Positions 8,897 through 27,030 of a stretch of DNA of 36,773 nucleotides are shown one piece after another (the first letter of the stretch is position 1; the number at the start of each line of letters is the position of its first letter). Location of the stretch: the NCBI GenBank assembly GCA_030691665.1, contig JAUYDU010000370.1, positions 1 through 36,773 on the forward strand, given 5' to 3'. The notes beneath the pieces were generated by a model that did not search any database, had not been told where the DNA came from, and saw nothing but the letters and a program-made list of their open reading frames with translations. The position numbers and the translations under genes were made by a program. This DNA comes from Chloroflexota bacterium (GTDB lineage Bacteria; Chloroflexota; Dehalococcoidia; SM23-28-2).

Positions 8897-11800
8897 TCAC
8901 CTCGAGCTCGTCAGCTCCTTTAGGAGGGCCGTCGTCTCCGGCAGCGGTTCGGCCTCTTCGTCGTCCAGCTCCCGCCGTAGCGATTCCACCAGCACCTTGT
9001 ACACCTTGCGGACGCCGTTCACGTCCCCCGCCTTGGCGTGGCAGCGCATGAGGCCCCGTGCTGCCTCCTCGTCGATAGGATCGCGAGCCAGGATCGCCCG
9101 GTAGAAGTCCGTCGCTTTCCTGATGTCACGGCAGTCCATAGCCAGACGGGCGGCCGCGTAGGCCGCCGCGATGAACTTCCGCTGGTACTCCTGCCGGTAC
9201 GTGGCCGCCCACTCGTACGGTTCGCCCGCCAGCAAGTCGCCCCGATAGAGGGCCAGCGCCCGCTCGTATTCAGAAAGCGCGTCGGCACCGTGGAGCGACT
9301 CAGCGCGACGGAGGTGCCCCTCGAAGGCGTCCACATCCACCCGAAACAGGCCAGACCGAAGGTGATAGCGCTGCCCGGACGTAGCAAAGAACTGGGTGTC
9401 AGCATCGGCAGTCACACTCTTCAGGGCCCGCCGCAAGTAGTAGGCAGCGTTGGACAGCATGTGCTGCATCTGGCCCAGGTCTCCCTCCGGCCACAGCGCC
9501 TCTGCCGCCTCCTCTCGCGGTACGGCGCTCCCGCCGCGAGCGATGAGATAGGCCAGAAGCTCCCGGGCCTTCTGGATGGTCCATTGGGTCACTTCGCGTC
9601 CGCCAGCCTCTACCTGAAACGACCCGAAGCAGCGGACGGCAAACAGGGGGCCGGCCCCTGGAGCCTCGCCGTCTTCTGGTGTGGTGTCGACAACTCCCGT
9701 TTCAATGAGGCTCAGTTGCCGGGTGGGCCCGCTCCCACCGGCGTCGCTGGCCCCAGCCAACGGTGCTTCATCTGGCGGCGCTTCTTCCGCAGGCGTGTCA
9801 AGCTCTGCTACGCCTGGTACAGGCTCCCGGGCCGGTTCCTCACCGATGTCCGGCCCCAGCGCCTGCTCGACAGACTCTGCCAGCCCTTCGCCCCCGTCGA
9901 CGCTCTCCGTCGGCCCTTCGACATGGCTCCGCGAGTCCCCGTCTGCCTTGACTAGGTCCCCCCGTGGCGGGAGAGTTCCCAGGTTCCCCCCTCGTACCTC
10001 CACGGGCGTCAGTGTGACGCAGACGTCCCGGCCGATGCTGAGCGCCAGTTCGCCGGGTCTCGGGCCGGATTCTGCGGCCCCGTCAGCCTCCCACTCTGCA
10101 ACGCTCCCGCCGAAGACAACGCTTGCGCCGAAGGCGTCGAGGAGCTGCTGCTCCTGAACCTCCTCCACTACGCCGACGGTGTAGACGAGATGCTCCGGCC
10201 CCCGCCGCAGCACCGTGCTCAGCCTCTCGATGTCCGAACCGGCGTCGGGCGAGAGACCGACCACCGCCAGAAGGGCGGCAGGAGTAAGGACGCCGCCCGT
10301 GCCGCGGGCTATGATCGTCTCCTCCAGCTCGGCTGCAACTTCGTCCAGAGAGCGCGAGCGCGACTCCTCGCTGACCATGCGGACGTGCGGCAGCGAGGCC
10401 AGGTCGCCAAGCCTGAGGGTGGCTTCGCCATTCGGCAGGAAGGCGAGGCGTTGGGGAGGATAGGCCGCCGCCAGGGTGGCCAGCCAGGCGGAGACGAGAG
10501 CGTACGCTTCGTGCTCACTTCCCACCACGAGGACGCTCCCGACGGCGGCCAGGTTCAGATAGTGGACTCCCTCGCTATTCGCGCCGACAGGCACCAGCAA
10601 CAGGGCATCAGTTGCCTGACCGTCGCCGACCAGGAGGCCCGCCAGCCGCTGAAACCGAGAGAGCCTCAGCCGAACCCGTGTCGAACTCTCGGCGGCTCCA
10701 TCGATGGCGCAGGCCAGGCGCCGTCCAACGACGTGGCGGCTGCGCGCCACGGCCTGGGCCTCCCCGGGCGCACAATCGAGGGTGAACTCCAGGGTGCGCT
10801 TGGATTCGCGGCATGTCACTACGCGGGGGTCATCGAAACGCAGCTCGGCCAGCGCCTCCAGGAGTGACTGGGCCGCCAGGATCACCCTGCCGGCGTCGCC
10901 CCTGGCGGAGTTGTGTGGCTGGCGGCTCCTGGCCAGGATCTTTAAGGCGCGTCTCCCGTTAGAACCTGCCAGCCGCCTTACGGCTATGGCCACCGCTCCT
11001 GCCGCGCCGAGCCCGAGGGCGCCCGCCAGCACCGCTTCCGCAGGCGGTACCCACCCCCAGCCATCTGCCCCTTCAGCGCTGGGCTGCTCCGGCAAGGCCG
11101 GCGTGACCCAGGAACCAGCGCTGGGTGTGGCTTCTGGCGTGATTGGGGGCTCGCTGGTCGGCGCTGGCGCCGTCGGGGAAGGAAGCTCGGGCGGTATGGG
11201 CGTGGGCGCCTCAGCGGGCGGCGTCACCTCGACTGGGAGTTGTAGCGGCCAGCCCGGCAGGATCAGACTGGGGTCTGTGAATCGCCGCCCGCCGCCCATG
11301 TCCTGACCCTGGTTGAGGTTCCAGATTTCCGCCCAGCGCAGACCGTCGCCCAGGAAACACTCCGCGATGCGCCAGAGGGAGTCGCCCTCGCGGACGCGGT
11401 ACGTCACCCCGCCCTCCACTGGCTCAACATTGGCCGCTGGCAGCGGCACCTTCAGCACCCAGCCGGGCCGGATCAGGCGGGGGTCAGTGAGGACCTCCTC
11501 GTCAGCCATGATCCGGCCCGCGTTCGCCTCGAAGATGCGCGGATAGAGGGAGCCGTCGCCGTAGAACCGGCGAGCGATGTCCCAGAGGGTGTCGCCCTGG
11601 ACCACGGTGTAGGAGACCGAGCCGCCACCGTCCTCCGCAGGTTCGGGGGAGCAGCCGGCGTCCGAGTCCATGTCCGACCGCTGTTCAACAGGTTCGAACA
11701 TCGCCGCGGCCACGACACCTGGATGCACATCCGTCGCTGCCTCAGCTTTCAGCCGAGGAGCTGGAGGTAGCCAGGCGGCGAGGACGAGGGTGCCCGCCAC

Positions 11801-12211
11801 CGCCCCGTCCACGATGCGTCTCACGATGGGAACCGTAATGAGGTCGCTAAGTCGCAGCGCGCTGTGGGTCCAGGCCGTACCCTCAGCCAGTCCCGCCAGG
11901 CCGAGGGCCGCCAGCCGCAGAGTGACGGACAGCGCCAGGTAGATGAGCGCCAGCCAGCCGATGCTCGTGGCCAGGTAAATGACATCCTCGTAGGGCAGGT
12001 AGGAGCCGGTCAAGATCTGGCGCGCCCGTTCCCAGTCCGGCGGCAGCGATGGGGGGTGTGGCGGCCCGTTCAGCCACCACAGCGCGACCCCCAGCGCAAC
12101 GGCTCCAGCCGCCAGCCCGACGAATCGAAGGAGCCCGTCGGCCGGCTCTGTGTCGCGCCCGCCCCGCGGTTGGTCGATGGCTGCCTGTCTTCTCGCGCTC
12201 GCGTCCGCCAA
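8897..12211 (-). CDS. membrane protein: 3 TM - LysM - LysM - Pro-rich linker - TM - degenerate FtsK/EccC-like region - SARP (OmpR-type wHTH + BTAD)
   Basis: LysM modules [20 protein letters not shown]...[11 protein letters not shown] and [20 protein letters not shown]...[12 protein letters not shown]-terminus [18 protein letters not shown]...ARELLAYLI...[21 protein letters not shown]...[14 protein letters not shown] is the SARP/AfsR/DnrI pattern. Start is TTG at 12211, so the exact start is uncertain. Confidence 0.85.
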
Positions 12212-12218: not shown

Positions 12219-13115
12219 CTATCTCCCCGTCAGGATCGATTGCAGCTGCTGAACCGGGTAGGCCGTGGTGAACGAGCGGGTGATGGGGTCCAGCGGCTGC
12301 CAGGGCCCGCCGTCGACCCGGTACCGTGCCGAAAAAGTGATCTCCACGCTTACAGGGAAGGTGCCGCCAGTGCTCAGCGATGATTGCTCGTAGGTGTGGC
12401 GGATGTCGCTCTCTTCCGGGTAGCGCTGGCCCAGGGAGGTCGACTTCAGAGTCGCGCCGTCGCCGAAAGTCCAGCGGTAGCCGGTAGGGGTAATCTCCAC
12501 CTCCACGGTGGTGCCACCCAAGGTATCCGACGCCGCGATAGGCAAGCCGTCGTACCCCTCCACCCAGAACCAGGACGGCAGCGCCACCAGTCCCACTTCG
12601 GGGTTCACGCCCACGGTGATGGCTGGCACCGGCACGTGGTCCAGCAGCTCTGCCGCCACGCTCGCCGGGTCGACCGGATCGCCCTGCACGACAACCACAC
12701 TCACCTCCGACGCTTCCACATCGAGGGGAAGCCAGACGATACTCATGAATCCGTTGTCGCACTGAACCACCCAGGGCGCCTCCCCGGGGTGAAGGGCCGA
12801 CTCGCGTTCGAACCACTCGCGGGTGGCGTTGCCGATGTTCATCACGTCGGCTGTACACGACCAGCCTCCTCCGGAGCTGCTGCTGGTGTCGCTGGACGAC
12901 GAGTCGCCCGAACTCCCAGGAGAGGTCTCGCTGACCGCGATGTAGATAGTCACACCGTCAGGCCCTGATTCGACGTAGGTCACAGCAGAGTCCGGCTTGT
13001 TGTCTCCAGGGTCGCCCGGATCGCCGGGCGACGGGTCATCGGCCAAAGCGCCCGTCACTATGAGTCCTGCCGTAAGAGCAGCGAAGCCTACCACTAGCAG
13101 GTGACGCATCTTCAC
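12219..13115 (-). CDS. secreted protein of the Tad operon, function unknown
   Basis: Signal peptide [25 protein letters not shown], a Pro/Asp and Ser-rich linker, then a conserved-looking body ([12 protein letters not shown]..., YRWTFGDG...). An ATG at 13109 is an alternative to the GTG at 13115. An 8-nt gap separates it from the next gene. Confidence 0.7.
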
Positions 13116-13121
13116 ATCCCC

Positions 13122-13676
13122 TTAGCGCTGGCGAGTGCTCCGCACTACCTTCCAGTCGCCGCTTATCTTCTGGAAGTAGAATGTGTCCTTCAGGATTTCA
13201 CCACTCCCTGATGCCTGGCCGGGTTCCTTTGTCTCAGCGTCCACGTAGAAGCTGTTGTTCGTGATCTCGTCGTACAAAGTGGCCGAATCCGAGGTCATGT
13301 CCACGACCAGGAACTTGTGACTGACGTCGACTCTGAGAGCGAGTCCCTGCGACCGCAGGCCATCTATCTCCTCTTGGATGCGTTGTAGCTCTTCGCCCGC
13401 TGCCACTCCCTCCACCAGCGCCGGGTTCAGGTCAAGCAGCGCCTGGCTGTAGGCATCCCAGTAGCGCAGGTATGCTGCCTCCACCTCCTCTTCGGGTGAA
13501 ACGGTCGTGGTCGCCGGAGGGGTCTGCGTGGGCGCAACTGTGGCCGTGGCCGTAGCTGCCGGGGTCGGCGAGCCTTGGCCGTCCACGCGCTCTCCGTTTC
13601 CTCCACCTCCGTCGCACCCGAAGGCAGTCAGGGTCAACGCCGCCAGTACCACCGTGATTACCAGTCGCCGTATCAA
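13122..13676 (-). CDS. lipoprotein of the Tad operon, function unknown
   Basis: TTG start with GAGGAG 6 nt upstream. MIRRLVITVVLAALTLTAFGC lipobox, a Thr/Pro/Ala linker, and a ~120-aa globular part. Confidence 0.65.
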   Translation of the reverse strand: MIRRLVITVVLAALTLTAFGCDGGGGNGERVDGQGSPTPAATATATVAPTQTPPATTTVSPEEEVEAAYLRYWDAYSQALLDLNPALVEGVAAGEELQRIQEEIDGLRSQGLALRVDVSHKFLVVDMTSDSATLYDEITNNSFYVDAETKEPGQASGSGEILKDTFYFQKISGDWKVVRSTRQR

Positions 13677-13707
13677 CTTTCGCTCCTCGATCTTTCCATC
13701 CTGCCTC

Positions 13708-14145
13708 TCAGGGCATCGCCGACGCCACGCCGTGACGGGGCTCCGCCGTCGCCTTCGCGCCGATCTCCACGCTATCGATGCCTACCACCCGCAGGAAGCC
13801 CGTCGAGGCCTGCCTTGACACTGCCACCTCCACTCCCGCGGGACGGACGACCACCGAGTAGTCAAGGCCGCCCTCGTCCTCGAGGTAGCCCACGGCCGCC
13901 CGATAGGCTGCTTGCTCGTCCAGCACCACCGACCCCGACGCCCGGTAGGCGCCCTCGTCAACCTGCATGGCGCCGGCCAGGGCCGCCGCGTCGGCCACGT
14001 TCTGGAGGTCTCGCCGCTGGGCGAAGACGAGACCGCCGTCAGATACCAGACCGACGACCGCCACGAGACCGACCATCGTGATGGCCACCATCACGATGAC
14101 CTGGCCGCCCTCGTCGGCCGAGAAGCGTCGCAGGAACGCCTTCAC
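13708..14145 (-). CDS. TadG-like pseudopilin (TadE/G-like N-terminal domain)
   Basis: DEGGQVIVMVAITMVGLVAVVGLVSDGGLVFAQRRDLQNVADAAALAGA matches the Flp pilus-assembly TadG N-terminal pattern. GTGA overlap with the upstream gene. Confidence 0.75.
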   Translation of the reverse strand: MKAFLRRFSADEGGQVIVMVAITMVGLVAVVGLVSDGGLVFAQRRDLQNVADAAALAGAMQVDEGAYRASGSVVLDEQAAYRAAVGYLEDEGGLDYSVVVRPAGVEVAVSRQASTGFLRVVGIDSVEIGAKATAEPRHGVASAMP

Positions 14146-14612
14146 CGCAGCACCGCCTCCCGGCTCCGGTAGAGGTCGATGCGCTCGGCGTGGGTGCTCG
14201 ATACGGTCACCTCCACACGATCCAGGAGAGGCAGGTCGGCCAGGGGCACCCGGTAGCTCACTTCGGCCGTAGCCACACCTCCCCGCTGAAAGCCGCCTGT
14301 GTCCACATCAACCGCCAGGTTGCTCTGCGAGAGCCCGTAGCCGTCGGCCACCGACCGCGCGCTCTGGAGAGCGGCCGTCACGCCCTCTGACTCTGAGGAC
14401 GCGGTGGCCAGACTGCGCCCGGCCTCTCGGGCCGCCGCCTGCACCGCCACCTTGGCGTGGGCGATCCGGCCCACCATCACCACGCCGAAGGCCAGGAGCA
14501 GCAGCACAGGGATCACCAGCGCTGCCTCCACCAGGGCCTGGCCGGCCTCGCCCCGACCGATCCGCCACCACCACGAGGCCGTCCGTCCACCGGCACCGCC
14601 ATCACGGCCCAC
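14142..14612 (-). CDS. tadE: TadE-like pseudopilin
   Basis: GEAGQALVEAALVIPVLLLLAFGVVMVGRIAHAKVAVQAAAREAGR is the TadE-like motif (G/xxxxE(A/F)AL..P). Start is GTG. Confidence 0.75.
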   Translation of the reverse strand: MGRDGGAGGRTASWWWRIGRGEAGQALVEAALVIPVLLLLAFGVVMVGRIAHAKVAVQAAAREAGRSLATASSESEGVTAALQSARSVADGYGLSQSNLAVDVDTGGFQRGGVATAEVSYRVPLADLPLLDRVEVTVSSTHAERIDLYRSREAVLR

Positions 14613-15009
14613 TGCGGAACCCCTCCTGCCGTACCTCAGCCGTCGCCTCGATGGGGATGCTCCGGCCGGTCACCCAGGGAATGAAGAGCGGGTAGTCGCC
14701 CTCCGTGTGCACCACCATCGTCTCACCCCTATCTTGCGCTGTCACGCCGAACCCGCCGGCGCTACGCCCCAGGCCCGACTCGAGCACCTCGCGGGCGCGG
14801 GCCGCGCCCTCGGCCGGGGTCCGACCCTCGGCCGCCGCCAGGCGCGCCCCCTCCTGCACCGCCGTGGTCGCCACGTCCCTGGCGTGGTACACCAGGGCGA
14901 ACTGGACCACCCCGATGAGGATGACCAGCAACACCGGCAGCGCCAGGGCGAACTCCACCATGCTCTGGCCGCGCTCGGCACCAAGCAGCCGGAAGGCGGT
15001 CCGGGCCAC
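14602..15009 (-). CDS. tadE: TadE-like pseudopilin
   Basis: RGQSMVEFALALPVLLVILIGVVQFALVYHARDVATTAVQEGAR is the TadE-like motif. Start is GTG at 15009. Confidence 0.8.
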   Translation of the reverse strand: MARTAFRLLGAERGQSMVEFALALPVLLVILIGVVQFALVYHARDVATTAVQEGARLAAAEGRTPAEGAARAREVLESGLGRSAGGFGVTAQDRGETMVVHTEGDYPLFIPWVTGRSIPIEATAEVRQEGFRSGP

Positions 15010-15010
15010 G

Positions 15011-15214
15011 CTACATGCCCGTGATGCTGCTCACTATGTTCCCGAAGACAGTGCTGATGCCGCCCCCCAGGGCCTCGACCGCCGCCATTGCGGCGACGGC
15101 GATGAGGGCGGCGACGATGGCGTACTCCACCATCGTCTGCCCTATCTCGGCCCCGGCCAGGCGTTGCAGCCGCCCCAGGGCCGCCCCTGCCAGCTCGAGA
15201 AACCGTCCTGCCAT
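15011..15214 (-). CDS. flp: Flp-family type IVb prepilin
   Basis: ATG at 15214 with GGAGGTG 6 nt upstream. The 67-aa product has the Flp processing/hydrophobic motif G-QTMVEYAIVAALIAVAAMAAV. Confidence 0.85.
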   Translation of the reverse strand: MAGRFLELAGAALGRLQRLAGAEIGQTMVEYAIVAALIAVAAMAAVEALGGGISTVFGNIVSSITGM

Positions 15215-15273
15215 CGCTTCACCTCCGCTCCCGCCCGCTCTCACGGGCGAGTTCATTCACCTCTCCTGACCGC

Positions 15274-16218
15274 TCAGCCGCCGAGGCCCAGGAGTTCGAC
15301 CCCGGCCGGGTAGAGGAGCACCACCAGGAACACCGGAAAGATGAACACGGCCACCGGGAAGAGCATACGCACCGTGCTCTTGCCGCCTTCCTCCAGGAGG
15401 CGTGCCCTCTTCTTGTCTCGAACCGTCTCCCCCAGGGTGAGCATCGCCTGGCCCAGGGGCAGCCCCTGCTCCAGGGCCGCCTGCCAGGCGTCAGCCACCG
15501 AGGCCAGCTCGCCGACTCCCTCCCGCTCGGCCAGCCGGCGTAGCGCCTCAGCGTGGGTCGCCGCGCCCAGCCCGGCCTCCCGCACGGCGTCCCGCAGGCC
15601 GTCGCCCAGCACACCGCCTACCTGCCGGCTCACCTCCAGCAGCGCCTGCTCCGGCGACATGCCGGCGCTGGCGGCGATGGCCAGCAGGTCCAGCACCGTC
15701 GGCAGCTCCATCACCACCGCCGTGCGGCGTCGCTCCAGCCTCTCCTCCAGCATCCAGTCGGGCGCGGCGAACCCCAGGCCGAAACCCACCAGCCACATCC
15801 ACACCGGCCACGCTCCAAAGGGGTGGACCCCCAGGACGTTCATGAGGGGAAACGCCGTCAACAAGACCAGCCCGCTGGCCAGCTTCTGACCGTAGAACTG
15901 GGCCGTCGTCATGCCCGGCCAGCCCAGGGCCAGCTTCCGCTCCAGGTCGCGGCCACCGAGCCCGGTGCGGGCGACGACTCGCCCCAGGACGCGGCCGGCG
16001 TCCTCCAGCAGGGGGCGCAGCAGCCGCTCCAGGGCGGGCGACTTAAACACCGCCGCCTGCGAGCCGCGGCGCCCTGCCTCCTCCTGAAGCCGCCCCTGGG
16101 CCGTCAGGCGCCGCAGACGGGAAGCCAGGTCCGGACGCCGCCGGCCCACCGGCTGGGCTGTGACTATCAGCCACAGGCCGCCGCCGAGCATGCCGCTCAA
16201 GATCAGCGCTACCGCCAT
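15274..16218 (-). CDS. tadC: TadC (T2SS-F family inner-membrane platform protein)
   Basis: 314-aa polytopic protein with the T2SSF-type cytoplasmic domain (LPTVLDLLAIAASAGMSPEQALLEV...). Its position after tadB is typical. Confidence 0.8.
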   Translation of the reverse strand: MAVALILSGMLGGGLWLIVTAQPVGRRRPDLASRLRRLTAQGRLQEEAGRRGSQAAVFKSPALERLLRPLLEDAGRVLGRVVARTGLGGRDLERKLALGWPGMTTAQFYGQKLASGLVLLTAFPLMNVLGVHPFGAWPVWMWLVGFGLGFAAPDWMLEERLERRRTAVVMELPTVLDLLAIAASAGMSPEQALLEVSRQVGGVLGDGLRDAVREAGLGAATHAEALRRLAEREGVGELASVADAWQAALEQGLPLGQAMLTLGETVRDKKRARLLEEGGKSTVRMLFPVAVFIFPVFLVVLLYPAGVELLGLGG

Positions 16219-17078
16219 CGCAGCACCCGTTCGTTGCCCGGCAGGCGCGTCGCCCAGAGCATCGTCGCGTAGCCGATCGTCACGCTGGCCAGGCAGAGGG
16301 CCAGCAGCGCCTGTCCCACCGGCGACGAGAAGACGTCCAGGTAGCCGGGGTTGATGCTCCGCACGGCGACGATGAGCACCAGGGGCAGCGCCGCCACGAC
16401 CCGGGCCGACAGCACGTTCTTGGCTTGCTGCGCCCGCACCTCGCGCTCCACTTGCACCGCCTGTCGCACCGAGCGGCCCAACCCCTCCAGCACCGTGCTC
16501 AGGTTGCGGCCGCCCACCCGGTGAGCCATCACCAGTGCCGCCGCCACCGTGTCGAAGACTGGGTCGGCCAGACGTTCCTGGGTGCGGCCGACGGCTTCCT
16601 CGAAGCCGCTGAGCCGCAGGTCCCGCGCCAGCTCCCGAAAGGCTGGCCGGAGGGCCTCCGGGCCGCTGCGGGCCAGGGAGGCCAGCCCCTCTTCGACGCT
16701 CATGCCGGCTCGCACCGCCGCCCGCAAGGCGTCCACGGCGTCGGCCAGGGCCGCCTGAAGGACGGCCCGCCGGGCCTCGCGTCGCTGCCGGAAGTACCAG
16801 GCCGGCAGAGCCAGCCCGACCAGGAAGGCCGAAAGGGTCACCACCGGCCAGCCCAGGCCCATCTGAGCGACGGCCGCCGTCGCCCCACCGCTGGCGGCGC
16901 TCAGCAGCAGGAAATCTCGGCTCCCCACGCCCTCCACGCCCGCCTGGCGCAGGAACTCCTCCAGGCGCTCGGCCAGCCGATCGCCGGACGGCCCCGCCTC
17001 CCTTTCACGTCGGGCGGTGGCGGAGAGGTACATCAGGAGTACCCCGAGCCCCAACGTTAGCGACAACACCAGCGGCAC
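16209..17078 (-). CDS. tadB: TadB (T2SS-F family inner-membrane platform protein)
   Basis: GTG start with AAGGAGGAG upstream. T2SSF pattern (LADAVDALRAAVRAGMSVEEGLASL...). 10-nt overlap with tadC. Confidence 0.8.
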   Translation of the reverse strand: MPLVLSLTLGLGVLLMYLSATARREREAGPSGDRLAERLEEFLRQAGVEGVGSRDFLLLSAASGGATAAVAQMGLGWPVVTLSAFLVGLALPAWYFRQRREARRAVLQAALADAVDALRAAVRAGMSVEEGLASLARSGPEALRPAFRELARDLRLSGFEEAVGRTQERLADPVFDTVAAALVMAHRVGGRNLSTVLEGLGRSVRQAVQVEREVRAQQAKNVLSARVVAALPLVLIVAVRSINPGYLDVFSSPVGQALLALCLASVTIGYATMLWATRLPGNERVLRWR

Positions 17079-17114
17079 GACCTCGTCTCCTCCTTGCCCT
17101 CAGGATGGCTCAGG

Positions 17115-17190
17115 CCAGTCCAATCCCAGTCCAATCGTTGGCACTGACGCCATCGAGTTGCTCCAATCCCAGTCCAATTTCAGTCCAAAG
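17115..17190 (-). promoter_or_regulatory. two arrays of 11-bp direct repeats (GATTGGACTGG on the coding strand) in the tadA-tadB spacer
   Basis: 17115-17125 and 17126-17136 are identical (ccagtccaatc x2 on plus strand). 17158-17168, 17169-17179 and 17180-17190 are three more consecutive 11-bp units (ttgctccaatc, ccagtccaatt, tcagtccaaag). Confidence 0.6.
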
Positions 17191-17214
17191 TCTTTTGCCG
17201 GCTCCTGCCACCCG

Positions 17215-18498
17215 CTACGCCCCTTCCCACGGCAGGCCCGCCGCCTGCACCCGCGCCGCACAGCGGGGCCGGATGCCCGTCCAGGAGAGCCGCCCGCCGT
17301 CGGCCAGCGAGAACAGCTCGCTGCCCGCCACCGCGTCCTCCTCCAGGCCGGTGACCTCGTACAGGCTGCCCACCAGGCGGCGGCCGCTACTGGAGTCCAG
17401 CCGCAGGTGCACCACCAGGTCGATGGCTTCGGCTATCATCTCGGTGACCGAACGCGCCGGTAGGGCCTCCTCAGCCATCATGGCGTAGGTGCGCAGCTTC
17501 GAGAGGGCCTGGCGGGGGCCGTTGGCGTGGATAGTGCACATCGACCCCTCGTGGCCGCTGTTCATCGCCGACAGCATGTCCAGGGCTTCGCTACCCCGCA
17601 CCTCGCCCACGATGATCCGCGTCGGCCGCATGCGCAGGGCGTTCTTCACCAGGCTGCGGATGGAGACGGCGCCGACCCCCTCCACGTTGGGCAAGCGGGC
17701 CTGGAGGGACACGCAGTCGGGGAGCATGGACTCCAGCTGGAGCTCTGCCGTCTCCTCGATAGTCACCACCCGCTCGTGTGCCCCGGCTATGGAGGCACCC
17801 AGGGCGTTGAGGCAGGTGGTCTTGCCGCTACCCGTGCCGCCGGAGATGAGGATGTTCAGCCCCGCCTGCACCGCTGCCTCCAGGAAGCCCGCCACTTCCA
17901 GTGTCAGGCTCCCCAGGCCCACCAGGTCGTCGAGGGTACGGGCCCGCAACAGGAACTTGCGGATGGTGACGTGCGTCCAGCGAGAGGTCAACGGCGGGAT
18001 GACGGCGTTCAGGCGCGAGCCGTCGGGCAGGCGGGCGTCCACCATGGGGCTGGTCTCGTCCAGCCGCCGGCCCAGGCCTCCCACGGCCCGCCGCACCAGC
18101 CGCAGCAGCTCGGCGTCGTCCTCGAAGAACACGTCGGCCAGGCGCTTGCACCCGCCCTCGATGGCGAACACGCGGTGCGGCCCGTTGACGATGATCTCCT
18201 CCACCGCCGGGTCGTCCAGCAGAGGCTGCAAGGGACCCAGACCGAGGATGTCGTCCAGGATGCGCTGGGCCAGCCCCTGGGGGTCTGCCAGCGGCGTCTC
18301 TCCCGCCGCCAGGGCGCGCCGGTTGAAGGCGTCGATCCGCTCGGCGACGATGCGCCGCACGCGCTCCACCTCGCCCGGGCCCGGCTCCGCCAGGGCGTCG
18401 ACGGCCATGACCCGGCGCAGCTCCTCCCGCACCTCCTCGCGCAGAGCTCGCTCCCGCTCCCTGCGGGCGTCTGGCTGCACCAGCCCCGAAATCGCCAT
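17215..18498 (-). CDS. tadA: TadA/CpaF secretion ATPase
   Basis: Internal ATG at 18498 overlapping the tadZ stop (TGATG). Walker A ILISGGTGSGKTT and VirB11/CpaF-type body (VTIRKF, RIIVGEVRGSEALDML, GHEGSMCTIHAN). The upstream 111 aa of the listed ORF are Gly/Arg junk overlapping tadZ. Confidence 0.9.
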   Translation of the reverse strand: MAISGLVQPDARRERERALREEVREELRRVMAVDALAEPGPGEVERVRRIVAERIDAFNRRALAAGETPLADPQGLAQRILDDILGLGPLQPLLDDPAVEEIIVNGPHRVFAIEGGCKRLADVFFEDDAELLRLVRRAVGGLGRRLDETSPMVDARLPDGSRLNAVIPPLTSRWTHVTIRKFLLRARTLDDLVGLGSLTLEVAGFLEAAVQAGLNILISGGTGSGKTTCLNALGASIAGAHERVVTIEETAELQLESMLPDCVSLQARLPNVEGVGAVSIRSLVKNALRMRPTRIIVGEVRGSEALDMLSAMNSGHEGSMCTIHANGPRQALSKLRTYAMMAEEALPARSVTEMIAEAIDLVVHLRLDSSSGRRLVGSLYEVTGLEEDAVAGSELFSLADGGRLSWTGIRPRCAARVQAAGLPWEGA

Positions 18499-19754
18499 CA
18501 CGCTCTCCTGAAGGCCAGCCGCCAGCGCCGGCGCCGGCCTGCGCCTGCCCGCACCGCTGCTTCTCGACCGGCCAGTGCCGACGCGAGTCGGCGCAGCTCG
18601 CGCGCAGCGCCGCCGCCGACGGCCGTGAGCGGCACCTGTTCCCCCACCGCCCGCCCCGCCGCCTTGCGGTCCTCCGGCAGGGCCGCCAGGACGGGCGCGC
18701 CCAGGGCCCGCTCCACCTCCTCCGCGTCGTAGTGCTCGCGGCCCTCCCGCCGCTTGAGCACAATGCCGATAGCCTCTCCCTCGACGCCCAGGCCCTCGCG
18801 CAGGTAGCGCAGAGCGGCGCGGGCGTTCCATACCGCCACCAGGTCCGCTTCGCTCACCACCAGGATGCGCTCAGCCTGCCGAAGGAGCGCATCCGTGGCG
18901 GGAGAGGCTGCTCCGGCGATGGCGCAGCCGGCGTCGACCACCACGTCGTCGAAGGCCGACCCCAGCGCGGCGGTGGCCGCTGTCATCACATCTGCTGAAA
19001 TGGCCGACCGCTGTTCGGCGCGCTCTATGCCGCCCAGGACCATGAAGCCGGGCCCTTCTTGGAGCTCCTCGTCCAGGCGCCCGGCCCACTCGTTGGGCGA
19101 GGCGTCCTTCCCGTAGGCCAGGGCAAATAGCCCTCGCTGCGGGTCCAGATCCAGATAGGCCCCCACATTCCCGCCCCAGGGGTCGGCGTCCACCAGGACG
19201 ACCTCCCGTCGCCGCTCGGCCAGAGCCGCTGCCAGGCCGATGGCCACCGTTGTCTTCCCCGGCGCCCCCTTCCCGCTCACCACCGCCATCAGCCGCCCCC
19301 GAGGGGCATCGCCGTCACCGCCGGGCAAAGACCCCTGCATTCCTGCGTCCTCTATCTGCGCCGAGGCCGCAGGGGCACTGTACACCGGACCCCGCCTCAC
19401 CGCCGCACGCAGGGCTGCCGTCACGTCAGACGCGCTGGCGCTGGCCGGCACCAGGTGCGCCAGCTCTCCGTAGCGCGACACGTCCTGCCCGTCGGCGATG
19501 AGCACCAGGGGCAGGCGGGCGTCTCGCACGGCCGTGAGGACCGCGGCTGACAGACGGTGCAGGTCGCTCGAGGCGAGGGCTACGTCGACATCGGCGCCGC
19601 CGGCGCGCTCGGCCAGGGAAGGGCCGTCCAGACAGCGGCCGGCCACCACCAGGCCGTCGCCCGGCAGGCCCTCCAGCAGCCGCCGCTCCCGCTCGGCGTT
19701 GCCCACCGCCAGGAGCACGCGTATCGAAGGCTGATCGTCACTGGACGATGACAT
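18498..19754 (-). CDS. tadZ: TadZ/CpaE (receiver-like N-domain + MinD/ParA-type ATPase)
   Basis: Deviant Walker A VVSGKGAPGKTT, preceded by a receiver-like domain (IRVLLAVGNAERERRLL...). Confidence 0.8.
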   Translation of the reverse strand: MSSSSDDQPSIRVLLAVGNAERERRLLEGLPGDGLVVAGRCLDGPSLAERAGGADVDVALASSDLHRLSAAVLTAVRDARLPLVLIADGQDVSRYGELAHLVPASASASDVTAALRAAVRRGPVYSAPAASAQIEDAGMQGSLPGGDGDAPRGRLMAVVSGKGAPGKTTVAIGLAAALAERRREVVLVDADPWGGNVGAYLDLDPQRGLFALAYGKDASPNEWAGRLDEELQEGPGFMVLGGIERAEQRSAISADVMTAATAALGSAFDDVVVDAGCAIAGAASPATDALLRQAERILVVSEADLVAVWNARAALRYLREGLGVEGEAIGIVLKRREGREHYDAEEVERALGAPVLAALPEDRKAAGRAVGEQVPLTAVGGGAARELRRLASALAGREAAVRAGAGRRRRWRLAFRRA

Positions 19755-20472: not shown

Positions 20473-20539
20473 GGCCCTCCCTGCCAGCCTGGATATGGAA
20501 AGCGAGAGGCTTCCCTCTGTGCCGAGCAAAGGGTGCCAC

Positions 20540-20776
20540 TGATGATAAACGGTAAAGCGAGGATTGTCAACCCTTGTGAACGAAATTTAATGAAATGTTT
20601 TCGGCACCGGCTTTTTGCGATACACTGAGATCGATGCTGTTGAGCATCAAGAGCTGGCTGAGCGGAGCCAGCCACGACGGCGCGCCCAACGGCGAGATCG
20701 GGTCTCCGCTCCCCGACCCCGAGGGAGCTAGCCCGCCTCGCCGGATCGCCGGGCGCACAAAGGGGGGAACAGAACT
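20540..20776. promoter_or_regulatory. divergent control region between the Tad operon and the EspR-like gene
   Basis: The only AT-rich stretch in this part of the window. It contains the direct repeat TTGTCAAC (20564-20571) / TTGTGAAC (20574-20581). No convincing -10 could be paired by eye. Confidence 0.35.
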
Positions 20777-21184
20777 ATGAGCACCACCCTGACAGAGAAG
20801 GTGGACCGCCTGTTCCGCACCTACCCCAGTCCCCGCGGGCGGGAGTACACCTACCGGGAGGTTGCTTCAGCCATATCCCAGCAGGACAGCGTCACCTTCT
20901 CGCCGGCCTACCTCTGGCAGTTGCGGACCGGCGTGAAGGACAATCCCACCATGCGCCACCTGCAGGCCCTGGCCCGCTTCTTCGACGTGTCGCCGGCCTA
21001 CTTCTTCGACGAGGAGCTCACGGAGTTCCCCGACGTGGAGGTGCGCCTCCTGGCGGCATCCAGAAGGGAGACGCTCCGCCGGATGGCCGTGACCCTGCTG
21101 GGCCTCAGCGACGAGAGCTTGAACGCCGTCCTCACGCTGGCCTGCCGGATGCGGCAACTCGAGGCCCTGCCATCGCCGGACTAG
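20777..21184 (+). CDS. EspR-like HTH (XRE-superfamily) transcriptional regulator
   Basis: MSTTLTEKVDRLFRTYPSPRGREYTYREVASAI...SPAYLWQLRTGVKDNPTMRHLQALARFFDVSPAYFFDEE follows, as I recall it, the N-terminal pattern of mycobacterial EspR (STT..RL.RLF....P..R..T..EV...YL.QLR.G...NP...ALA.FF...AYF.D). Confidence 0.7.
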   Translation: MSTTLTEKVDRLFRTYPSPRGREYTYREVASAISQQDSVTFSPAYLWQLRTGVKDNPTMRHLQALARFFDVSPAYFFDEELTEFPDVEVRLLAASRRETLRRMAVTLLGLSDESLNAVLTLACRMRQLEALPSPD

Positions 21185-21200
21185 CCGCCGCGCCTGGCCG

Positions 21201-21230
21201 ACCGCTGCCTAACCGCTGCCTAACCGCTGC
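21201..21230. repeat. 11-bp tandem repeat accgctgccta x2.7 at the truncation point of the integrase stub
   Basis: accgctgccta (21201-21211), accgctgccta (21212-21222), accgctgc (21223-21230). Confidence 0.8.
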
Positions 21231-21530
21231 GACCTCCACACCGTACAGCGCATGCTCGGCCACCACAACGTCGCCACGACCACCCGGTACCTCCACCTCC
21301 TCCTCAGCGACATGCAGGAGAAGATGCGGACCTTCAGCCCGATGGACAACATGACCCTAAGAAGCGAGAGGGAAGGGAAGAAGCCGGGGGGAACCTGGGA
21401 CCAGGCCGATGGCGGTCAGGTGAACAGTCGACTCATTGACACGCCCTGGACACCCGCAACATCGCCAAGTATGCCCACTGCCGCTCTTCGCAGTATAATT
21501 CCTCGCAGAGGCATATCACATGGTGCGTGA
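21213..21530 (+). pseudogene. 3'-terminal stub of a tyrosine recombinase/integrase
   Basis: The frame reads ..CDLHTVQRMLGHHNVATTTRYLHLLLSDMQEKM.. (about 21228-21350). This is the LGH...TT..Y.H box carrying the catalytic Tyr. Everything N-terminal to it (Arg-His-Arg catalytic residues, core-binding domain) is absent, with an in-frame stop at 21210. Confidence 0.7.
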
Positions 21531-22407
21531 AAGGCTCCTCTTCAAGACGTTCAAGGATCTTCGGCTGCGAGCTTCGAACGCACAATCGCATGTCGATCTC
21601 ATTCTGAACCTTGAGTCACTAGATCGCCACAAAGATCTCTTGGGGGCCCCGTCAACCGGCGTCGAGAGACGGCTTCTACTGACGGGCCTAGCCAATGTCT
21701 ACGGGATGGCGACGCACCTGAGGAAAGCCCTTCGGATTGGTTGGAAAGCCGGCATTGGTGCGATCCACTTTAACTCGACTGAAACGCTAATCATCGACCG
21801 TCAAGATGTTTGGCAGTGGGGGACAGGAGAGAGCCGAGCTCTTCCTGTTACAGGGAATCCGCATTCCGCCGTGCGTTCCTTTGACGCCATGTGGAACTAC
21901 TGGCGCTCCGTGAAGAGAATCGAGCCGGTGACCCAGGAACTGAAGCCATCCGCGCAGCTCCTCAAGGTGTCCTCGCATCAGTGGGATCAAATCGTTGCGA
22001 GTCTCAGTAAGAACCCTGGACTGCTTCATGTCATGTCGCCGAGAAGGTTTGAGGAATTGGTTGCAGAGCTACTTGAGCGAGAAGGCCTGCGGGTCAAGCT
22101 CACGCCGCCGCAGCGCGACGGTGGATTCGATATTTTGGCCTTTCTCAATACACCTTTAGGCGAGCATCTCTACTTGGTTGAGTGTAAACGTTGGGCGCCT
22201 CACCGAAGAGTTGATGTGACGATAGTACGTCAACTTCTCGGGGTGCTTCACCGCGATGAGGCTACGGCGGCCATGCTCGTTACTACATCGTCCTTCACCG
22301 TCGACGCTCGAAGGGAGGCGGATATCTTCCGGTATCGGCTATCCCTGAAGGGCTATGACGATCTGGTCAGGTGGCTCAGACTGCAACCGACTGGGCACAC
22401 CAAGTGA
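21520..22407 (+). CDS. Mrr-type (PD-(D/E)xK) restriction endonuclease domain protein with uncharacterised ~170-aa N-terminal domain
   Basis: C-terminus MSPRRFEELVAELLEREGLRVKLTPPQRDGGFDILAF...LYLVECKRW...VRQLLGV...AMLVTTSSFT is the Mrr_cat pattern (D...ECK). GC content is visibly lower than the flanks. Confidence 0.75.
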   Translation: MVRERLLFKTFKDLRLRASNAQSHVDLILNLESLDRHKDLLGAPSTGVERRLLLTGLANVYGMATHLRKALRIGWKAGIGAIHFNSTETLIIDRQDVWQWGTGESRALPVTGNPHSAVRSFDAMWNYWRSVKRIEPVTQELKPSAQLLKVSSHQWDQIVASLSKNPGLLHVMSPRRFEELVAELLEREGLRVKLTPPQRDGGFDILAFLNTPLGEHLYLVECKRWAPHRRVDVTIVRQLLGVLHRDEATAAMLVTTSSFTVDARREADIFRYRLSLKGYDDLVRWLRLQPTGHTK

Positions 22408-22657
22408 TAGAACTCCCTCTCGGCTGACTAGTGTCCTCTTGGGCTCAACGAACAAATTCAGGGCTGCCCGTCTCCACCCCTATCTGCCAGATTCACCCTG
22501 TCAGCAATCGTAAAGAGGGCAGTAATTACATGGCTGCTGGAGTTACCTAGGACAGTTTACGGAGAGCCTCCCTGGTGCCGCCCTGCAGCAGGACAGTTCG
22601 TTTCTCGCGATCCAAGGCAAGGAGAGCAATCCTTACTCCATAGACGAAGGGCGTCAT

Positions 22658-22884
22658 ATGGCGAAACCGAGATTACAGGCAAGGGACAGGTCACCATCCC
22701 CAAGGACGTGCGAGAGCGCCTCGGGCTCCGGCCGGGCGACGAGATCGAGTTCGTCGAGGATCGAGCGGGGTTCCGCGTCCAGAAGCGGGTGCTGGCCTCT
22801 CCCTTCAAGAAGTACCGCGGTTACGTGAAGGAGCTGGCGGGATGTGATCCTGACGAGCTCCTGGACTACATGCGGGGTAGATAG
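22658..22884 (+). pseudogene. AbrB/SpoVT/MazE-type antitoxin with a 1-nt frameshift after codon 4
   Basis: ATG GCG AAA CCG at 22658 is in frame 2. From 22672 frame 1 reads ITGKGQVTIPKDVRERLGLRPGDEIEFVEDRAGFRVQKRVLASPFKKYRGYVKELAGCDPDELLDYMRGR*. Restoring one base gives the canonical MAKP.ITGKGQVTIPK start. No cognate PIN toxin follows. Confidence 0.6.
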
Positions 22885-22886
22885 GC

Positions 22887-23078
22887 GCCGCCGTCGATAC
22901 CGTCCTCGAGGCCTGGCGCATCGACGACCAGTGGTGGCGCCTGCGGCCGGTGAGCCGGATGTATTACTCGCTCTCGTTAGAGGATGGGCGGGTAATGACG
23001 ATGTATCACGATCTCGTGAGCGGCGGATGGGCAAAGCAGGCCTATAGCAGTAAGTACCGCGGAGGCACGGATCAATGA
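22887..23078 (+). pseudogene. start-less fragment of a small conserved protein (WRIDDxWWR motif)
   Basis: The frame reads AAVDTVLEAWRIDDQWWRLRPVSRMYYSLSLEDGRVMTMYHDLVSGGWAKQAY with no start codon after the stop at 22878. From memory this resembles the C-terminal half of a DUF-type protein often found near Y-family polymerase/mutasome genes. Unverified. Confidence 0.3.
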
Positions 23079-23515
23079 AGATATTGGTCTTCACTGAGGG
23101 AACCGCCACCAAACATCCGTCCCAGGAGCACTTTTTCGATGTCGCCTCTTTCGTTCCTACTGAGGGTACGGTCGAAAAGCTCACGATGTGGCGGGCACAA
23201 GGCGCTGAGATTTCCTACCTGACTTCGCAGCGTTGGAATGACAACCCCCAGGCGGTTGAGGCCACGCTGCGACGGTTCAACTTCCCAGCCGGGGAGCTCT
23301 ATTACCGCAGAGAGGGCGAGGACTATGTGGACGTGGTGAGACGGGTGTGCCCCGAGGTGTTGATTGAGGACGATTGCAGGAGCATCGGTTGGGAGGAAGT
23401 GATCACACCCAAGCTCAAGGCCGAGTGGGGGATCAAGGGCATCATTGTTCAGGAGTTCGGCGGTCTGGCGCAGTTGCCGGATGGCCATCAGGAACTGCTG
23501 AGAATGGCCTCGTGA
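23075..23515 (+). CDS. hypothetical protein (146 aa)
   Basis: Clean ORF MKILVFTEGTATKHP...VLIEDDCRSIG... with a faint HAD-like flavour, but the first catalytic Asp motif is absent. No confident family assignment. Confidence 0.5.
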   Translation: MKILVFTEGTATKHPSQEHFFDVASFVPTEGTVEKLTMWRAQGAEISYLTSQRWNDNPQAVEATLRRFNFPAGELYYRREGEDYVDVVRRVCPEVLIEDDCRSIGWEEVITPKLKAEWGIKGIIVQEFGGLAQLPDGHQELLRMAS

Positions 23516-23516
23516 G

Positions 23517-23859
23517 ATGCCCTACGCCGAGCTTGCCGCCCACTTCCCCGAACAAGGGGAACTGGACCGCTTTCTAGCCGACACCGGCCTTCGACTGGAG
23601 CCCTCGAGCGCCGAAGCCCTCTATGGCGGGAAGGGCCTGGACCGACTACGTCCGTCGCCGTCCCGCGCGCCCGGCCTGTCCCCAGTGCGGTATCGCCCAG
23701 GACGTGCGCTGCTCCAGCTGCGATGCCAGCATCCAGCCTCGACAGCACGTACTCAGCGACTTCGTCATCGGAGCCCACGCCCTCGTGCAGGCCGACAGGC
23801 TGCTGACCAGGGACAGGGGATACTACGCCACCTACGTCCCCGAGCTGAAGCTGGGCTGA
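23517..23859 (+). pseudogene. PIN-domain (VapC-like) toxin remnant with zinc-ribbon insert, frameshifted and lacking the N-terminal catalytic Asp
   Basis: Frame 0 (23517) reads MPYAELAAHF...[11 protein letters not shown]. Frame 1 (from ~23623) continues (A)[18 protein letters not shown]...CSSCD...[39 protein letters not shown], the C-terminal PIN signature. Confidence 0.5.
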
Positions 23860-24345
23860 GTGAGCAGCACCGGATACAGGGGAGAAGGTGCAGTGAAGGC
23901 GAATGCTAGACCGAGGAACGCAACTGACGGGAGAAGGTGGGAAGTAGGGAACCACCTATTCACCGTCCTCAAACCAAGCACCTTATCCTCTCCAGGGTGA
24001 CACTCCAGCCCCAGGAAAGCCGAGGGCAACACGTTGCCTGGCAAGCTACTCACCGTCCTTCTCTCCCAACACTACCGTGGCGTCGCGTGTACACACCCCG
24101 TTACCCTTCCCCTTCGTCACAGTTGGACCTTCTCGATTAACTCAAGATGTAAATATAGCCACGGTCATATTTTTCTCCAACGCCGCTCCAACTGCGCCCG
24201 GCGTCGTCCCTGCCCTTACTCCCCAATCCCGGCGCTGCCCTGTGCATCGCCGCAGAGGGGCGCCGTGTCGGCCTGAATCGACCGCACCCATCGTTTCGCG
24301 AGTCGTCATACTCTGGGCGCTCTCTTGCACGGGCCGCCGCCAAAA

Positions 24346-24404
24346 TTGGAGTATATCCTCGCCAATTGGACTGCGCCCGCCGGATTCTTGGACTCGATTT
24401 GGAC
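24346..24404 (+). promoter_or_regulatory. four phased TTGGA(C/G) direct repeats
   Basis: TTGGA starts at 24346, 24366, 24388 and 24399 (aATTGGAGt, aATTGGACTGc, cTTGGACTCg, tTTGGACCTc). Spacings are 20, 22 and 11 bp. Same core as the tadA-tadB spacer repeats. Confidence 0.5.
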
Positions 24405-24847
24405 CTCCCAGCGGTAGGCTTGGCCCCGTAAGAAGCGCGTTTAGTCGGTACCGCCAATCGAAGAACCGACAGGACGGCCCGTCCGAGACCTTGGCCGGAT
24501 CAACCCGAAAGGGGAACGAGCTTGCTCTCCAGACTAGGGGCTGAACAGGGCAAGAGGATCAAGCAACAGGGCTGGCAAGAGGCCAGGATTCACGAAGGGA
24601 GGTGCGAACGAACAGGAAGCTGACACGAGACTCCACAGCCGAACCAGACGCCGTAGTCAGAGAAGGGAGGCGACCGAAGCCGAGAGACGACTCGTTCGAG
24701 TCCGACTGACAAGCCGGCGAAGAGCCGCTCCCAATAGAACGACGCACGGGCACCAGCGATTCGGCGAAATGAGGCCTCCTCGCGTCGGTCCGACCGAGAG
24801 CAACGGGTCTCGCCTGTAGCCTGAGCTGCCCGCTGTCCGTCAAGCAG

Positions 24848-24885
24848 AAGCCCCACCGGGGTTAGTCCCCAGCGGGGCTTTTTGC
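24848..24885 (+). terminator. intrinsic terminator
   Basis: aagccccaccgggg-ttagt-ccccagcggggctt forms a GC-rich interrupted ~12-bp stem, followed by a T-run (ttttt, 24879-24883). Confidence 0.7.
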
Positions 24886-24910
24886 GTTTCATGTCGAAAG
24901 GAGATCCGTC

Positions 24911-25033
24911 GTGCGATCCAGAAGCGATCGTTGGCGGAACGGGCGAGGCTCGCGGGGAGCCGCCCGCGCCGCGACCATGCTGAGCGCCGCTGCCTTCCTG
25001 GCGGCGCTTCTGTTCAAGGCCTGGCCATTCTAG
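24911..25033 (+). CDS. possible 40-aa peptide (basic N-terminus, hydrophobic C-terminus)
   Basis: GTG preceded by AAAGGAG at 7 nt. MRSRSDRWRNGRGSRGAARAATMLSAAAFLAALLFKAWPF. Third-codon positions are mostly G/C. Too short for the ORF track. Confidence 0.3.
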   Translation: MRSRSDRWRNGRGSRGAARAATMLSAAAFLAALLFKAWPF

Positions 25034-25054
25034 AGGTCGTAAAGGAGGAACACC

Positions 25055-25929: not shown

Positions 25930-25951
25930 TTCAGCAAGGAGGTGAACAACC

Positions 25952-26974: not shown

Positions 26975-26999
26975 CTTTCCGGCCTCTAGAACGCCTTTC

Positions 27000-27030
27000 C
27001 CCTGGGGGCCGCTACAAGCGGCCCCCAGGG
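27000..27030 (+). terminator. 13-bp perfect GC-rich hairpin after the coiled-coil gene
   Basis: ccctgggggccgc-tacaa-gcggcccccaggg. No U-tract, so it is a terminator or other structured element. Confidence 0.45.

Follow-up and report, generated by a model that had tools for sequence, protein, structure and literature searches.

This analysis concerns the 136-nt spacer between tadA and tadB in a Tad/Flp pilus operon of a Chloroflexota bacterium (contig JAUYDU010000370.1 of assembly GCA_030691665.1); the window is the whole stretch of DNA analysed, 36,773 nucleotides. On the minus strand, the spacer carries five 11-bp repeat units. We consider it likely that the spacer is an activator-dependent internal promoter for tadB, tadC, flp, the pseudopilin genes, and the regulator gene itself, which is the last gene of the operon and encodes a SARP-type domain. 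This reading is built on the repeats, their helical phasing and conservation, a -10-like hexamer at a fixed distance, the SARP fold of the encoded domain, and the covariation of its recognition helix with the repeats. A preliminary description of this DNA had proposed a SARP-dependent promoter; each of its predictions that could be computed from sequence and structure models held, which supports the proposal.

The spacer (17079-17214) lies between the tadA stop codon (TAG, 17217-17215) and the tadB GTG at 17078, and its units share the core TTGGAC/G (Table 1). The start-to-start spacings are 11, 11, 32, and 11. The units, their order, the 21-nt gap, and the 36 nt from the last unit to the tadB GTG are as the preliminary description gave them. 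Its count of five TTGGAC copies in 76 bp is correct for the number of units; however, only four of them are TTGGAC, and the fifth is TTGGAG. Its rough estimate of about ten TTGGAC per window was fair, as 15 were counted on both strands.

The 8-bp sequence TTGGACTG occurs five times in the window, where 0.78 copies are expected, and four of the five copies fall within the spacer; none of 100 dinucleotide shuffles reached five. Five TTGGA within 76 bp of one strand were not reached in any of 300 first-order Markov simulations (the maximum was four, attained once). The preliminary description had claimed that the clustering is not due to chance, and these figures agree with it. Tandem Repeats Finder reported a period of 11 at 17115-17136 and 17162-17188, and the local GC content falls to 0.59 in this region. 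We also built a position weight matrix from repeat units, leaving out those of the window and of closely related loci, and scored it as 11-bp dimers. The distal dimers score 29.4 and 31.4 and the proximal dimer 31.0, against 16.9 for the best of 100 simulated windows. Elsewhere in the window, dimers score 24.1 at 24193 (-) and 18.5 at 24386 (+); signal above the null is confined to the spacer and the 24.2-24.4 kb region.

Related loci were collected through a TadB scan of a genome collection (nine loci in Chloroflexota metagenome-assembled genomes), a metagenome scan (22 more), and look-ups of TadB and regulator homologues (ten further loci). An exact look-up of the TadB from the window returned no record. 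The compared loci come from Chloroflexota metagenome-assembled genomes and metagenome contigs, and their TadB sequences are 50-94% identical. A spacer, 89-242 nt long, is present in every locus carrying both tadA and tadB. The array is present in all 35 distinct spacers, and in each the final two hexamers have a spacing of exactly 11 bp; the loss of the repeats from orthologous loci, which the preliminary description had named as evidence against its proposal, is thus not seen. The common layout is hexamer-N5-hexamer-N10-NANNNT, then 17-33 nt (mode 21) containing AGGAGG, then the tadB start codon; the Shine-Dalgarno block is conserved in the orthologous spacers. Two to four extra hexamers are located upstream of the proximal pair, at about 11, 22, or 33 bp. 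Over the 35 spacers, the start-to-start spacings are 11 (61 times), 22 (20), 21 (17), a 15+6 overlapping pair (7), and 32/33 (6). When the 31 non-redundant spacers were aligned on the last hexamer, the conserved unit was A-TTGGAC-T, that is, eight of the 11 positions, and the ten bases ahead of NANNNT were not conserved in sequence. One locus (L032) is a frameshifted long-read assembly; its spacer is nonetheless of the TTGGAC type.

We searched the strict pattern TT[GC]GNN-N5-TT[GC]GNN-N10-NANNNT on both strands of the window and L001-L031 (373,813 bp). It matched only tadA-tadB spacers, three sites of a second class described below (window 24388+, L001 2872-, and L016 1104-), and one L001 site after the regulator gene. 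In L001, a TTGGA array (18049-18110, plus strand; spacings 22 and 11, N10, GACACT) is found just downstream of the regulator gene; no counterpart of it was seen in the window, where the next gene is a tRNA gene. Within each 20-kb locus, the variant hexamer pairs were confined to the spacer, and no second target sites were found within the 20 kb of the variant-hexamer loci.

Three plasmid tad loci with the same gene order (Curtobacterium pC1c, Ca. Chlorohelix allophototropha, and Streptomyces sp. T12) have tadA-tadB gaps of 8, -4, and -4 nt, respectively, and the earlier statement that these genes are usually contiguous holds for them. The syntenic LysM protein of the three loci had no Pfam match to a winged helix-turn-helix (wHTH) or BTAD domain. 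No repeat array was found at the tadA-tadB junction of Curtobacterium pC1c, the only plasmid locus searched for repeats.

The NANNNT hexamer was located by requiring A2 and T6 and by trying N10 first, then N9 and N11. It occurs at the fixed N10 offset, which is 8 nt after the 8-bp unit, in 30 of the 31 non-redundant spacers; L040 has N9. In the window, the last repeat starts 16-17 nt ahead of the predicted -10 hexamer CATCCT, the same distance as at afsS. In SARP targets, the repeats are 11 or 22 bp apart, and the 3' repeat is 8 bp from the -10 element (PMC10936776). Of the 11 bp in each repeat, AfsR touches the first 8; the afs box extends over the -35 element, and the afsS -10 (CACTGT) is suboptimal (PMC10936776; PMC11301090 agrees). 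The preliminary description had taken tandem 11-bp repeats to be SARP-site geometry; the spacings of 11, 21/22, and 32/33 and the predicted -10 offset fit the rule of PMC10936776. By its sequence, the spacer geometry thus matches the published layout of SARP promoters.

A sigma-70 scan of the spacer found no canonical promoter and no terminator. At the head of rcpC-tadZ-tadA, there is a near-consensus sigma-70 promoter with 11 of 12 consensus matches, where 0.1 such promoters are expected in shuffles. Ordinary -35 elements are therefore in use here, and the missing -35 at tadB is meaningful. The -10 of this upstream promoter ends 2 nt before the GTG at 20539 used by the longest open reading frame (20529-20570, minus strand). 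Because the two are so close, the first operon gene probably starts downstream, for example at the TTG at 20529, or is leaderless.

The operon ends with a gene for a protein of 1104 aa. Its order of domains is hydrophobic segments, two LysM domains, a hydrophobic segment, an FtsK-like domain without Walker A motif, an acidic linker, and a wHTH followed by BTAD. Pfam detects LysM (56.7 bits) and BTAD (57.4 bits, cut-off 22.1), and no Response_reg receiver was matched in this protein. AlphaFold2 modelled the last 254 residues from a 42-sequence alignment with a pLDDT of 96.4 and a pTM of 0.91. In a Foldseek search of this model against the PDB, the top six matches were to AfsR (8k60 chains I and J, 8hvr chain I) and EmbR from M. 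tuberculosis (2ff4, 2fez). The AfsR and EmbR matches cover all 254 residues with query TM-scores of 0.74-0.77; the remaining matches were to tetratricopeptide repeat (TPR) proteins only, at 0.23-0.40. A phmmer search of the C-terminal domain against the PDB returned only designed TPR proteins and no SARP; because phmmer missed AfsR and EmbR, the SARP fold became visible only through structure prediction and Foldseek. According to the model, the C-terminal domain has the arrangement that defines SARPs, an OmpR-type wHTH directly followed by an all-helical BTA domain, and homologues are named SARP-family activators by JGI. The preliminary description had placed a SARP domain in the last gene of the operon, and both the BTAD match and the structural matches agree with this. 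SARP modules do not usually form the C-terminus of a larger protein, as this one does.

Hydropathy places the hydrophobic segments at residues ~26-48, 76-109, and 391-412, with the two LysM domains between them. The protein is thus predicted to be anchored in the membrane, with the LysM domains outside and the FtsK-like and SARP-type domains inside. The central cytoplasmic domain (residues ~420-800, window 9800-10960, minus strand) is FtsK/SpoIIIE-like and looks like a pseudo-ATPase. FtsK_SpoIIIE was not matched by Pfam in the protein from the window itself; among orthologues, it scores 35.5 bits in L039, above the cut-off, and 22.4 bits in L009. The Walker A motif GxxGxGK[ST] was found in none of 17 orthologues, in which the aligned P-loop reads VGSEHEA, AGLPGGGGE, or AGLPGGGTE and has no lysine. 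A gene of the LysM-BTAD type is located at the operon end in every locus long enough to show it. A plasmid of C. acnes has a protein tabulated as 'LysM, BTAD' at the end of its tad locus (PMC3666418); this entry was the sole trace in the literature on tad and BTAD or SARP, in which we found no account of such a system. Two candidates were set aside. A plasmid match to the C-terminal domain alone (H10, Arthrobacter) is a BTAD regulator of a catabolic cluster outside a tad locus, and P0048 / L033 is a truncated BTAD fragment outside any tad operon and is uninformative.

The hexamer varies by lineage, whereas the geometry is constant over the 35 spacers. Sites whose sequence changes while their geometry does not are expected when a co-inherited, sequence-specific protein reads them, and not of a structural or RNA element. 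Most lineages have TTGGAC or TTGGAG; the recognition helix paired with TTGGAC comes from seven lineages, and the one paired with TTGGAG from L005. The other pairs are TTGGAA with helix HPLPNAAYYVRR (L026, L034, and L035), TTGGYG/TGGGTG with HLLNNAASYLRR (L001), TTAGAA with KMLYNAMYSLRV (L036), TTGAGG with SRLYSNLSILRS (L040), AGTGMC (for example AGTGAC) with NRLRSEMNRLRG (L039), and GGTCAG in L029 and L038, with helix QNLHQSGSRLRR in L038. L009 and L041 have similar helices (NRMRV.M.RLR), and both have GTAAY sites (GTAAT or GTAAC). L015 and L024 carry TTCGAC; their regulator was not recovered, as the closest TadB relatives sit on contigs shorter than 4 kb. In partial Mantel tests over 17 loci, the correlation between site and helix given the rest of the domain is 0.49 (permutation p ~4e-4), and that between site and the rest of the domain given the helix is 0.01. 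This covariation of site and helix sequences is good but not conclusive support, as the 17 loci are a small and phylogenetically structured sample.

Several observations weigh against an activator-dependent promoter read by this protein. The compared loci are related, and the counts overstate their independence. The -10 hexamer is defined by A2 and T6 alone, and the 30 of 31 occurrences at one offset are partly selected, although the chance of a match at a fixed offset is still only ~3%. The null result of the sigma-70 scan is expected for an activator-dependent promoter, yet it gives no positive support. Trans_reg_C scores 24.3 bits in the regulator, just under the Pfam cut-off of 26.2. The contrast with the three spacer-less plasmid loci depends on Pfam failing to detect wHTH and BTAD there. 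The recognition code is not one-to-one: the L001 spacer has TTGGYG/TGGGTG, and two other L001 sites have TTGGAC. Finally, a wHTH tethered to a membrane protein of 1104 aa must still reach the DNA and the polymerase; by analogy with ToxR and CadC, this is plausible.

If the spacer is such a promoter, two C-terminal wHTH-BTAD domains would sit next to each other, on the same helix face, at the proximal repeats in the -35 position. Standing in for the missing -35 contact, this dimer would bring RNA polymerase to the weak -10 CATCCT, as AfsR does at afsS. Transcription from ~17095 would give a leader of ~17 nt with a strong ribosome-binding site, and the three distal, helically phased repeats may bind more copies cooperatively. 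No terminator was found after tadA, and the promoter at 20570-20542 would allow basal read-through and the making of a little regulator, which would then boost tadB, tadC, flp, the pseudopilins, and its own gene. The regulator gene is the last of the unit that it would activate; combined with this basal expression, its position would make the circuit a positive feedback loop. The predicted membrane anchor and extracellular LysM domains could couple activity to the cell envelope or to pilus assembly, and the same protein may also switch on a helicase/primase operon in the mobile-element-like region described below. Binding, the start site, activation in preference to repression, the membrane topology, and the feedback loop are parts of this scheme that we infer. 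It goes beyond the preliminary description in that the SARP domain would be the cytoplasmic tail of a large predicted membrane-anchored LysM protein instead of a soluble SARP, the regulator gene is itself part of the unit under its putative control, and the window holds at least one further putative target promoter.

The spacer could be a promoter and yet be bound by a different winged-helix regulator, such as the OmpR/PhoB-type protein encoded at 6948-7646 next to a kinase (6043-6951). Repeats phased by 11 bp and overlapping the -35 are common to the OmpR/PhoB/SARP superfamily, and SARP geometry resembles that of GlnR and PhoP (PMC11301090). This protein has a Response_reg domain and a strong Trans_reg_C match (80.8 bits), and its gene is 1.3 kb past the operon. 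However, it is located across a tRNA gene and is not syntenic elsewhere, the sole match being a weak and partial one in L009. Moreover, the repeats track the operon-encoded recognition helix and not general divergence, and loci without the wHTH/BTAD tail have no spacer. We consider a regulator from outside the operon unlikely. A further possibility is that the repeats are not a promoter but a clt-like site, where the last protein, similar to TraB, would grip the DNA of a mobile element in order to translocate or tether it. TraB is a peptidoglycan-binding protein that recognises direct repeats of 8 bp within clt (PMC4447253), and the last protein has LysM domains and FtsK_SpoIIIE matches in its orthologues (35.5 bits in L039, 22.4 bits in L009); the surroundings resemble a mobile element, and TrbL, SLT, PrgI, and TraC-like genes are found in related loci. 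With the Walker A lysine absent from 17 of 17 orthologues, an ATP-driven translocase is unlikely, and we gave the TraB-like reading less weight for this reason. The DNA-binding part is a complete SARP module (wHTH and BTA), known for polymerase recruitment. A clt-like role would also leave unexplained the fixed N10-NANNNT, the constant place before the tadB ribosome-binding site, and the second site with its TAGGCT and conserved transcript; we regard it as quite unlikely.

The sign of regulation might also be the opposite one: the operon protein would bind the repeats as a roadblock or operator limiting read-through from the tadA promoter into tadB. The sites do lie inside the read-through unit, and the covariation is silent on the sign. 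A roadblock would have no use for the conserved -10-like hexamer and Shine-Dalgarno block at fixed distances, though, and activation by SARPs uses sites that cover the -35 and stop 8 bp short of the -10, with the BTA domain as the part that contacts the polymerase. Repression therefore appears very unlikely to us. Still less probable, and in our judgement close to negligible, is a role of the repeats in the read-through mRNA, where they would bind a CsrA-like or other protein or direct a processing event that uncouples tadA from tadB. With no terminator between the two genes, the repeats are probably transcribed from the upstream promoter, and their GGA cores adjoin the Shine-Dalgarno sequence. 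Against this, the GGTCAG, AGTGAC, and GTAAT lineages, which have no GGA, keep the helical phasing and the -10 offset, and the repeats of the second site are upstream of the -10, hence outside the transcript. No stable or conserved structure was found in the spacer (single-strand fold z = -0.34), an Rfam search at permissive E-values gave chance-level matches only and no family, and an 11-nt spacing is a property of the DNA helix.

On the minus strand, the operon runs from a first gene through tadZ, tadA, the spacer, tadB, tadC, flp, two tadE, a tadG-like gene, and two unknown genes to the LysM-BTAD gene (Table 1). The Pfam content (CbiA/ParA, T2SSE, two T2SSF, Flp_Fap, two TadE, and Tad) is that of a Tad/Flp (type IVc) cluster. 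The first gene has no Pfam match in the window; the same position is held by SAF/RcpC in related loci, and tblastn connects the first gene to that region only weakly and in L005 alone. The tadA orthologues are 426-446 aa long, and tadA itself probably starts at about 18.5 kb, where it overlaps the tadZ end.

Table 1. Positions of the repeat units, promoter-like features, and genes discussed in the text.
Feature	Positions	Strand	Sequence, evidence, or remark
Distal unit 1	17190-17180	-	CTTTGGACTGA; sequence reading
Distal unit 2	17179-17169	-	AATTGGACTGG; sequence reading
Distal unit 3	17168-17158	-	GATTGGAGCAA; sequence reading
Distal array	17158..17190	-	Three 11-bp units, head-to-tail
Gap between distal and proximal units	17157-17137	-	21 nt
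Proximal unit 1	17136-17126	-	GATTGGACTGG; sequence reading
Proximal unit 2	17125-17115	-	GATTGGACTGG; identical to proximal unit 1
Proximal pair	17115..17136	-	Two perfect GATTGGACTGG units over the expected -35 position; proposed to bind two SARP-like domains as a side-by-side dimer
Predicted -10 hexamer	17102..17107	-	CATCCT; 10 nt after the last TTGGAC, 8 nt after TTGGACTG
Predicted start (~17095) and short leader	17079..17101	-	AGGAGG ribosome-binding site at 17094-17089
tadB, first gene 3' of the array	16209..17078	-	Pfam T2SSF; orthologues 50-94% identical in L001-L031
tadC, flp, two tadE, tadG-like, two conserved unknown genes	12219..16218	-	Pfam; synteny conserved; proposed rest of the transcription unit
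Last gene (1104 aa; LysM, pseudo-FtsK, SARP-type)	8897..12211	-	Pfam, hydropathy, orthologues
SARP-type domain (residues 851-1104, 254 aa)	8900..9661	-	AlphaFold2 and Foldseek
tadA/cpaF ATPase open reading frame	17215..18831	-	Pfam T2SSE, 168 bits
Near-consensus sigma-70 promoter	20542..20570	-	TTGACA-17-TATCAT; head of rcpC-tadZ-tadA
Second site of the same design	24346..24420	+	TTGGA at 24346, 24366, 24388, and 24399; N10; TAGGCT (24415-24420)

The second site has hexamer spacings of 20, 22, and 11, and homologues in L001 (TAGACT), L016 (TAAGCT), and L037 (TAGGCT). It heads a conserved operon consisting of a leader, open reading frames of 92, 199, and 340 aa, a UvrD-like helicase, and a DnaG-like primase; the synteny of these genes extends to L001 and L037. 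Right after the site, ~125 nt are conserved (window 24421-24545, plus strand; L001 ~2838-2700, L016 ~1071-945, and L037 from 4997, all minus strand). This stretch reads CCCCGUAAGAAGCGCGUUU.GUCGGUA...ACCGACAGG...GGAAACGAGCUCGCUCUCC and has predicted hairpins, one with a GNRA-type loop; one optional hairpin is missing in L001, and the hairpins exhibit little covariation, with three sequences only. The stretch had no Rfam match, and it could be a leader or a small RNA. A terminator-like hairpin is located at 24864-24879. In the opposite orientation to the second site, a third pair (24172-24193, minus strand) has TTGGAG and a matrix dimer score of 24.1; its TTGGAG is 17 bp from TATATT, which is ordinary -35 spacing. 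Together, the pair and the second site suggest a divergent control region.

The whole tad cluster seems to belong to an integrated mobile element. A tRNA-Lys(UUU) gene (8471-8542, minus strand) directly follows the regulator gene. Beyond the operon, 20777-36339 encodes an XRE-type helix-turn-helix protein, Mrr, the UvrD-like helicase, the DnaG-like primase, Rad52/22, RadC, an N6-methylase, and SNF2, and the GC content is lower at 21.4-24.6 kb. Related loci contain genes for TrbL, SLT/NlpC-P60, PrgI, and TraC-like proteins, which resemble those of type IV secretion systems. Other repeats occur in the window. Directly after the HTH_3 gene (20777-21184), ACCGCTGCCTA is repeated as a perfect 11-bp tandem (2.7 copies, 21201-21230, plus strand) with no sequence relation to TTGGAC. 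Tandem repeats of 99 and 117 bp (1261-1576 and 2893-3214) are found inside the gene of a HEAT-repeat protein (1160-3265, minus strand); these are probably coding repeats unrelated to the tadA-tadB array.

The closest known systems are the SARP promoters of actinomycetes (AfsR at afsS, and the targets of ActII-ORF4, DnrI, and RedD). Both have direct repeats spaced by 11 or 22 bp along one face of the helix, conservation of about 8 of the 11 bp in each repeat, a 3' repeat 8 bp from a weak -10 (here a predicted one), repeats overlapping the -35, and a protein with an OmpR-type wHTH followed by BTA (the model compared with AfsR and EmbR has a TM-score of ~0.75). In contrast, the host here belongs to the Chloroflexota, the putative targets are Tad pilus and helicase/primase operons and not antibiotic genes, and there are 4-6 sites and not 2-3. 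The module is C-terminal in a predicted membrane-anchored protein of 1104 aa, whereas the known ones are N-terminal and soluble. The candidate promoter is also internal to an operon, and the unit under putative activation ends with the regulator gene.

In the pho-box promoters of PhoB and OmpR-type regulators, the -35 gives way to tandem direct repeats of 11 bp, to which winged-helix domains bind head-to-tail. The tandem repeats at the -35 position are similar here; however, this protein has BTA and no receiver, and control would not be by receiver phosphorylation. ToxR, TcpP, and CadC are membrane-tethered wHTH proteins with an extracytoplasmic sensing part, acting at direct repeats near the promoter; ToxR and CadC carry the wHTH at the N-terminus and have a single membrane span. 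The protein described here resembles them in its tethered wHTH (predicted from hydropathy) with an outside part, whereas its wHTH is C-terminal, after several hydrophobic segments, and accompanied by BTA, LysM, and a pseudo-ATPase. Streptomyces TraB with clt is similar in being membrane-associated, peptidoglycan-binding, and FtsK-like, with a C-terminal winged helix that reads direct 8-bp repeats, plasmid-specific in the case of TraB, and a mobile-element context (PMC4447253). It differs in that the protein here has no Walker A and a full SARP domain, and in that its repeats have promoter geometry.

A wider reading combines these resemblances; we offer it tentatively and think it more doubtful than probable. 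The protein would be a membrane-anchored, wall-sensing master activator of a mobile element in monoderm bacteria. Its ancestor may have been a TraB-like DNA translocase, with the ATPase lost and a BTA domain acquired since. Through lineage-specific repeats of 8 bp, the protein would switch on, in a self-reinforcing manner, the genes from tadB onward and the helicase/primase module. If this were true, the state of the pilus or envelope, or contact between cells, would be tied to DNA processing and transfer, and the series of helix and repeat variants would be a ready-made recognition code for SARP domains.

The logic of SARP promoters is already known; what is new is its occurrence in Chloroflexota, inside a Tad operon, with putative self-activation, a predicted membrane-anchored LysM/pseudo-FtsK/SARP architecture, and a series of rewired helix-repeat pairs. 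SARP activators have been studied almost solely as soluble switches of antibiotic clusters in actinomycetes, and the same logic would here be at work in another phylum. The natural helix-repeat pairs with rewired specificity could be useful for decoding or engineering how SARPs read DNA. The findings also flag a family of Tad operons on mobile-element-like regions of Chloroflexota, with relatives on actinomycete plasmids. For the pilus, an internal promoter would give a concrete answer to how the late Tad genes (platform, pilin, and pseudopilins) may be controlled separately from tadZ and tadA.

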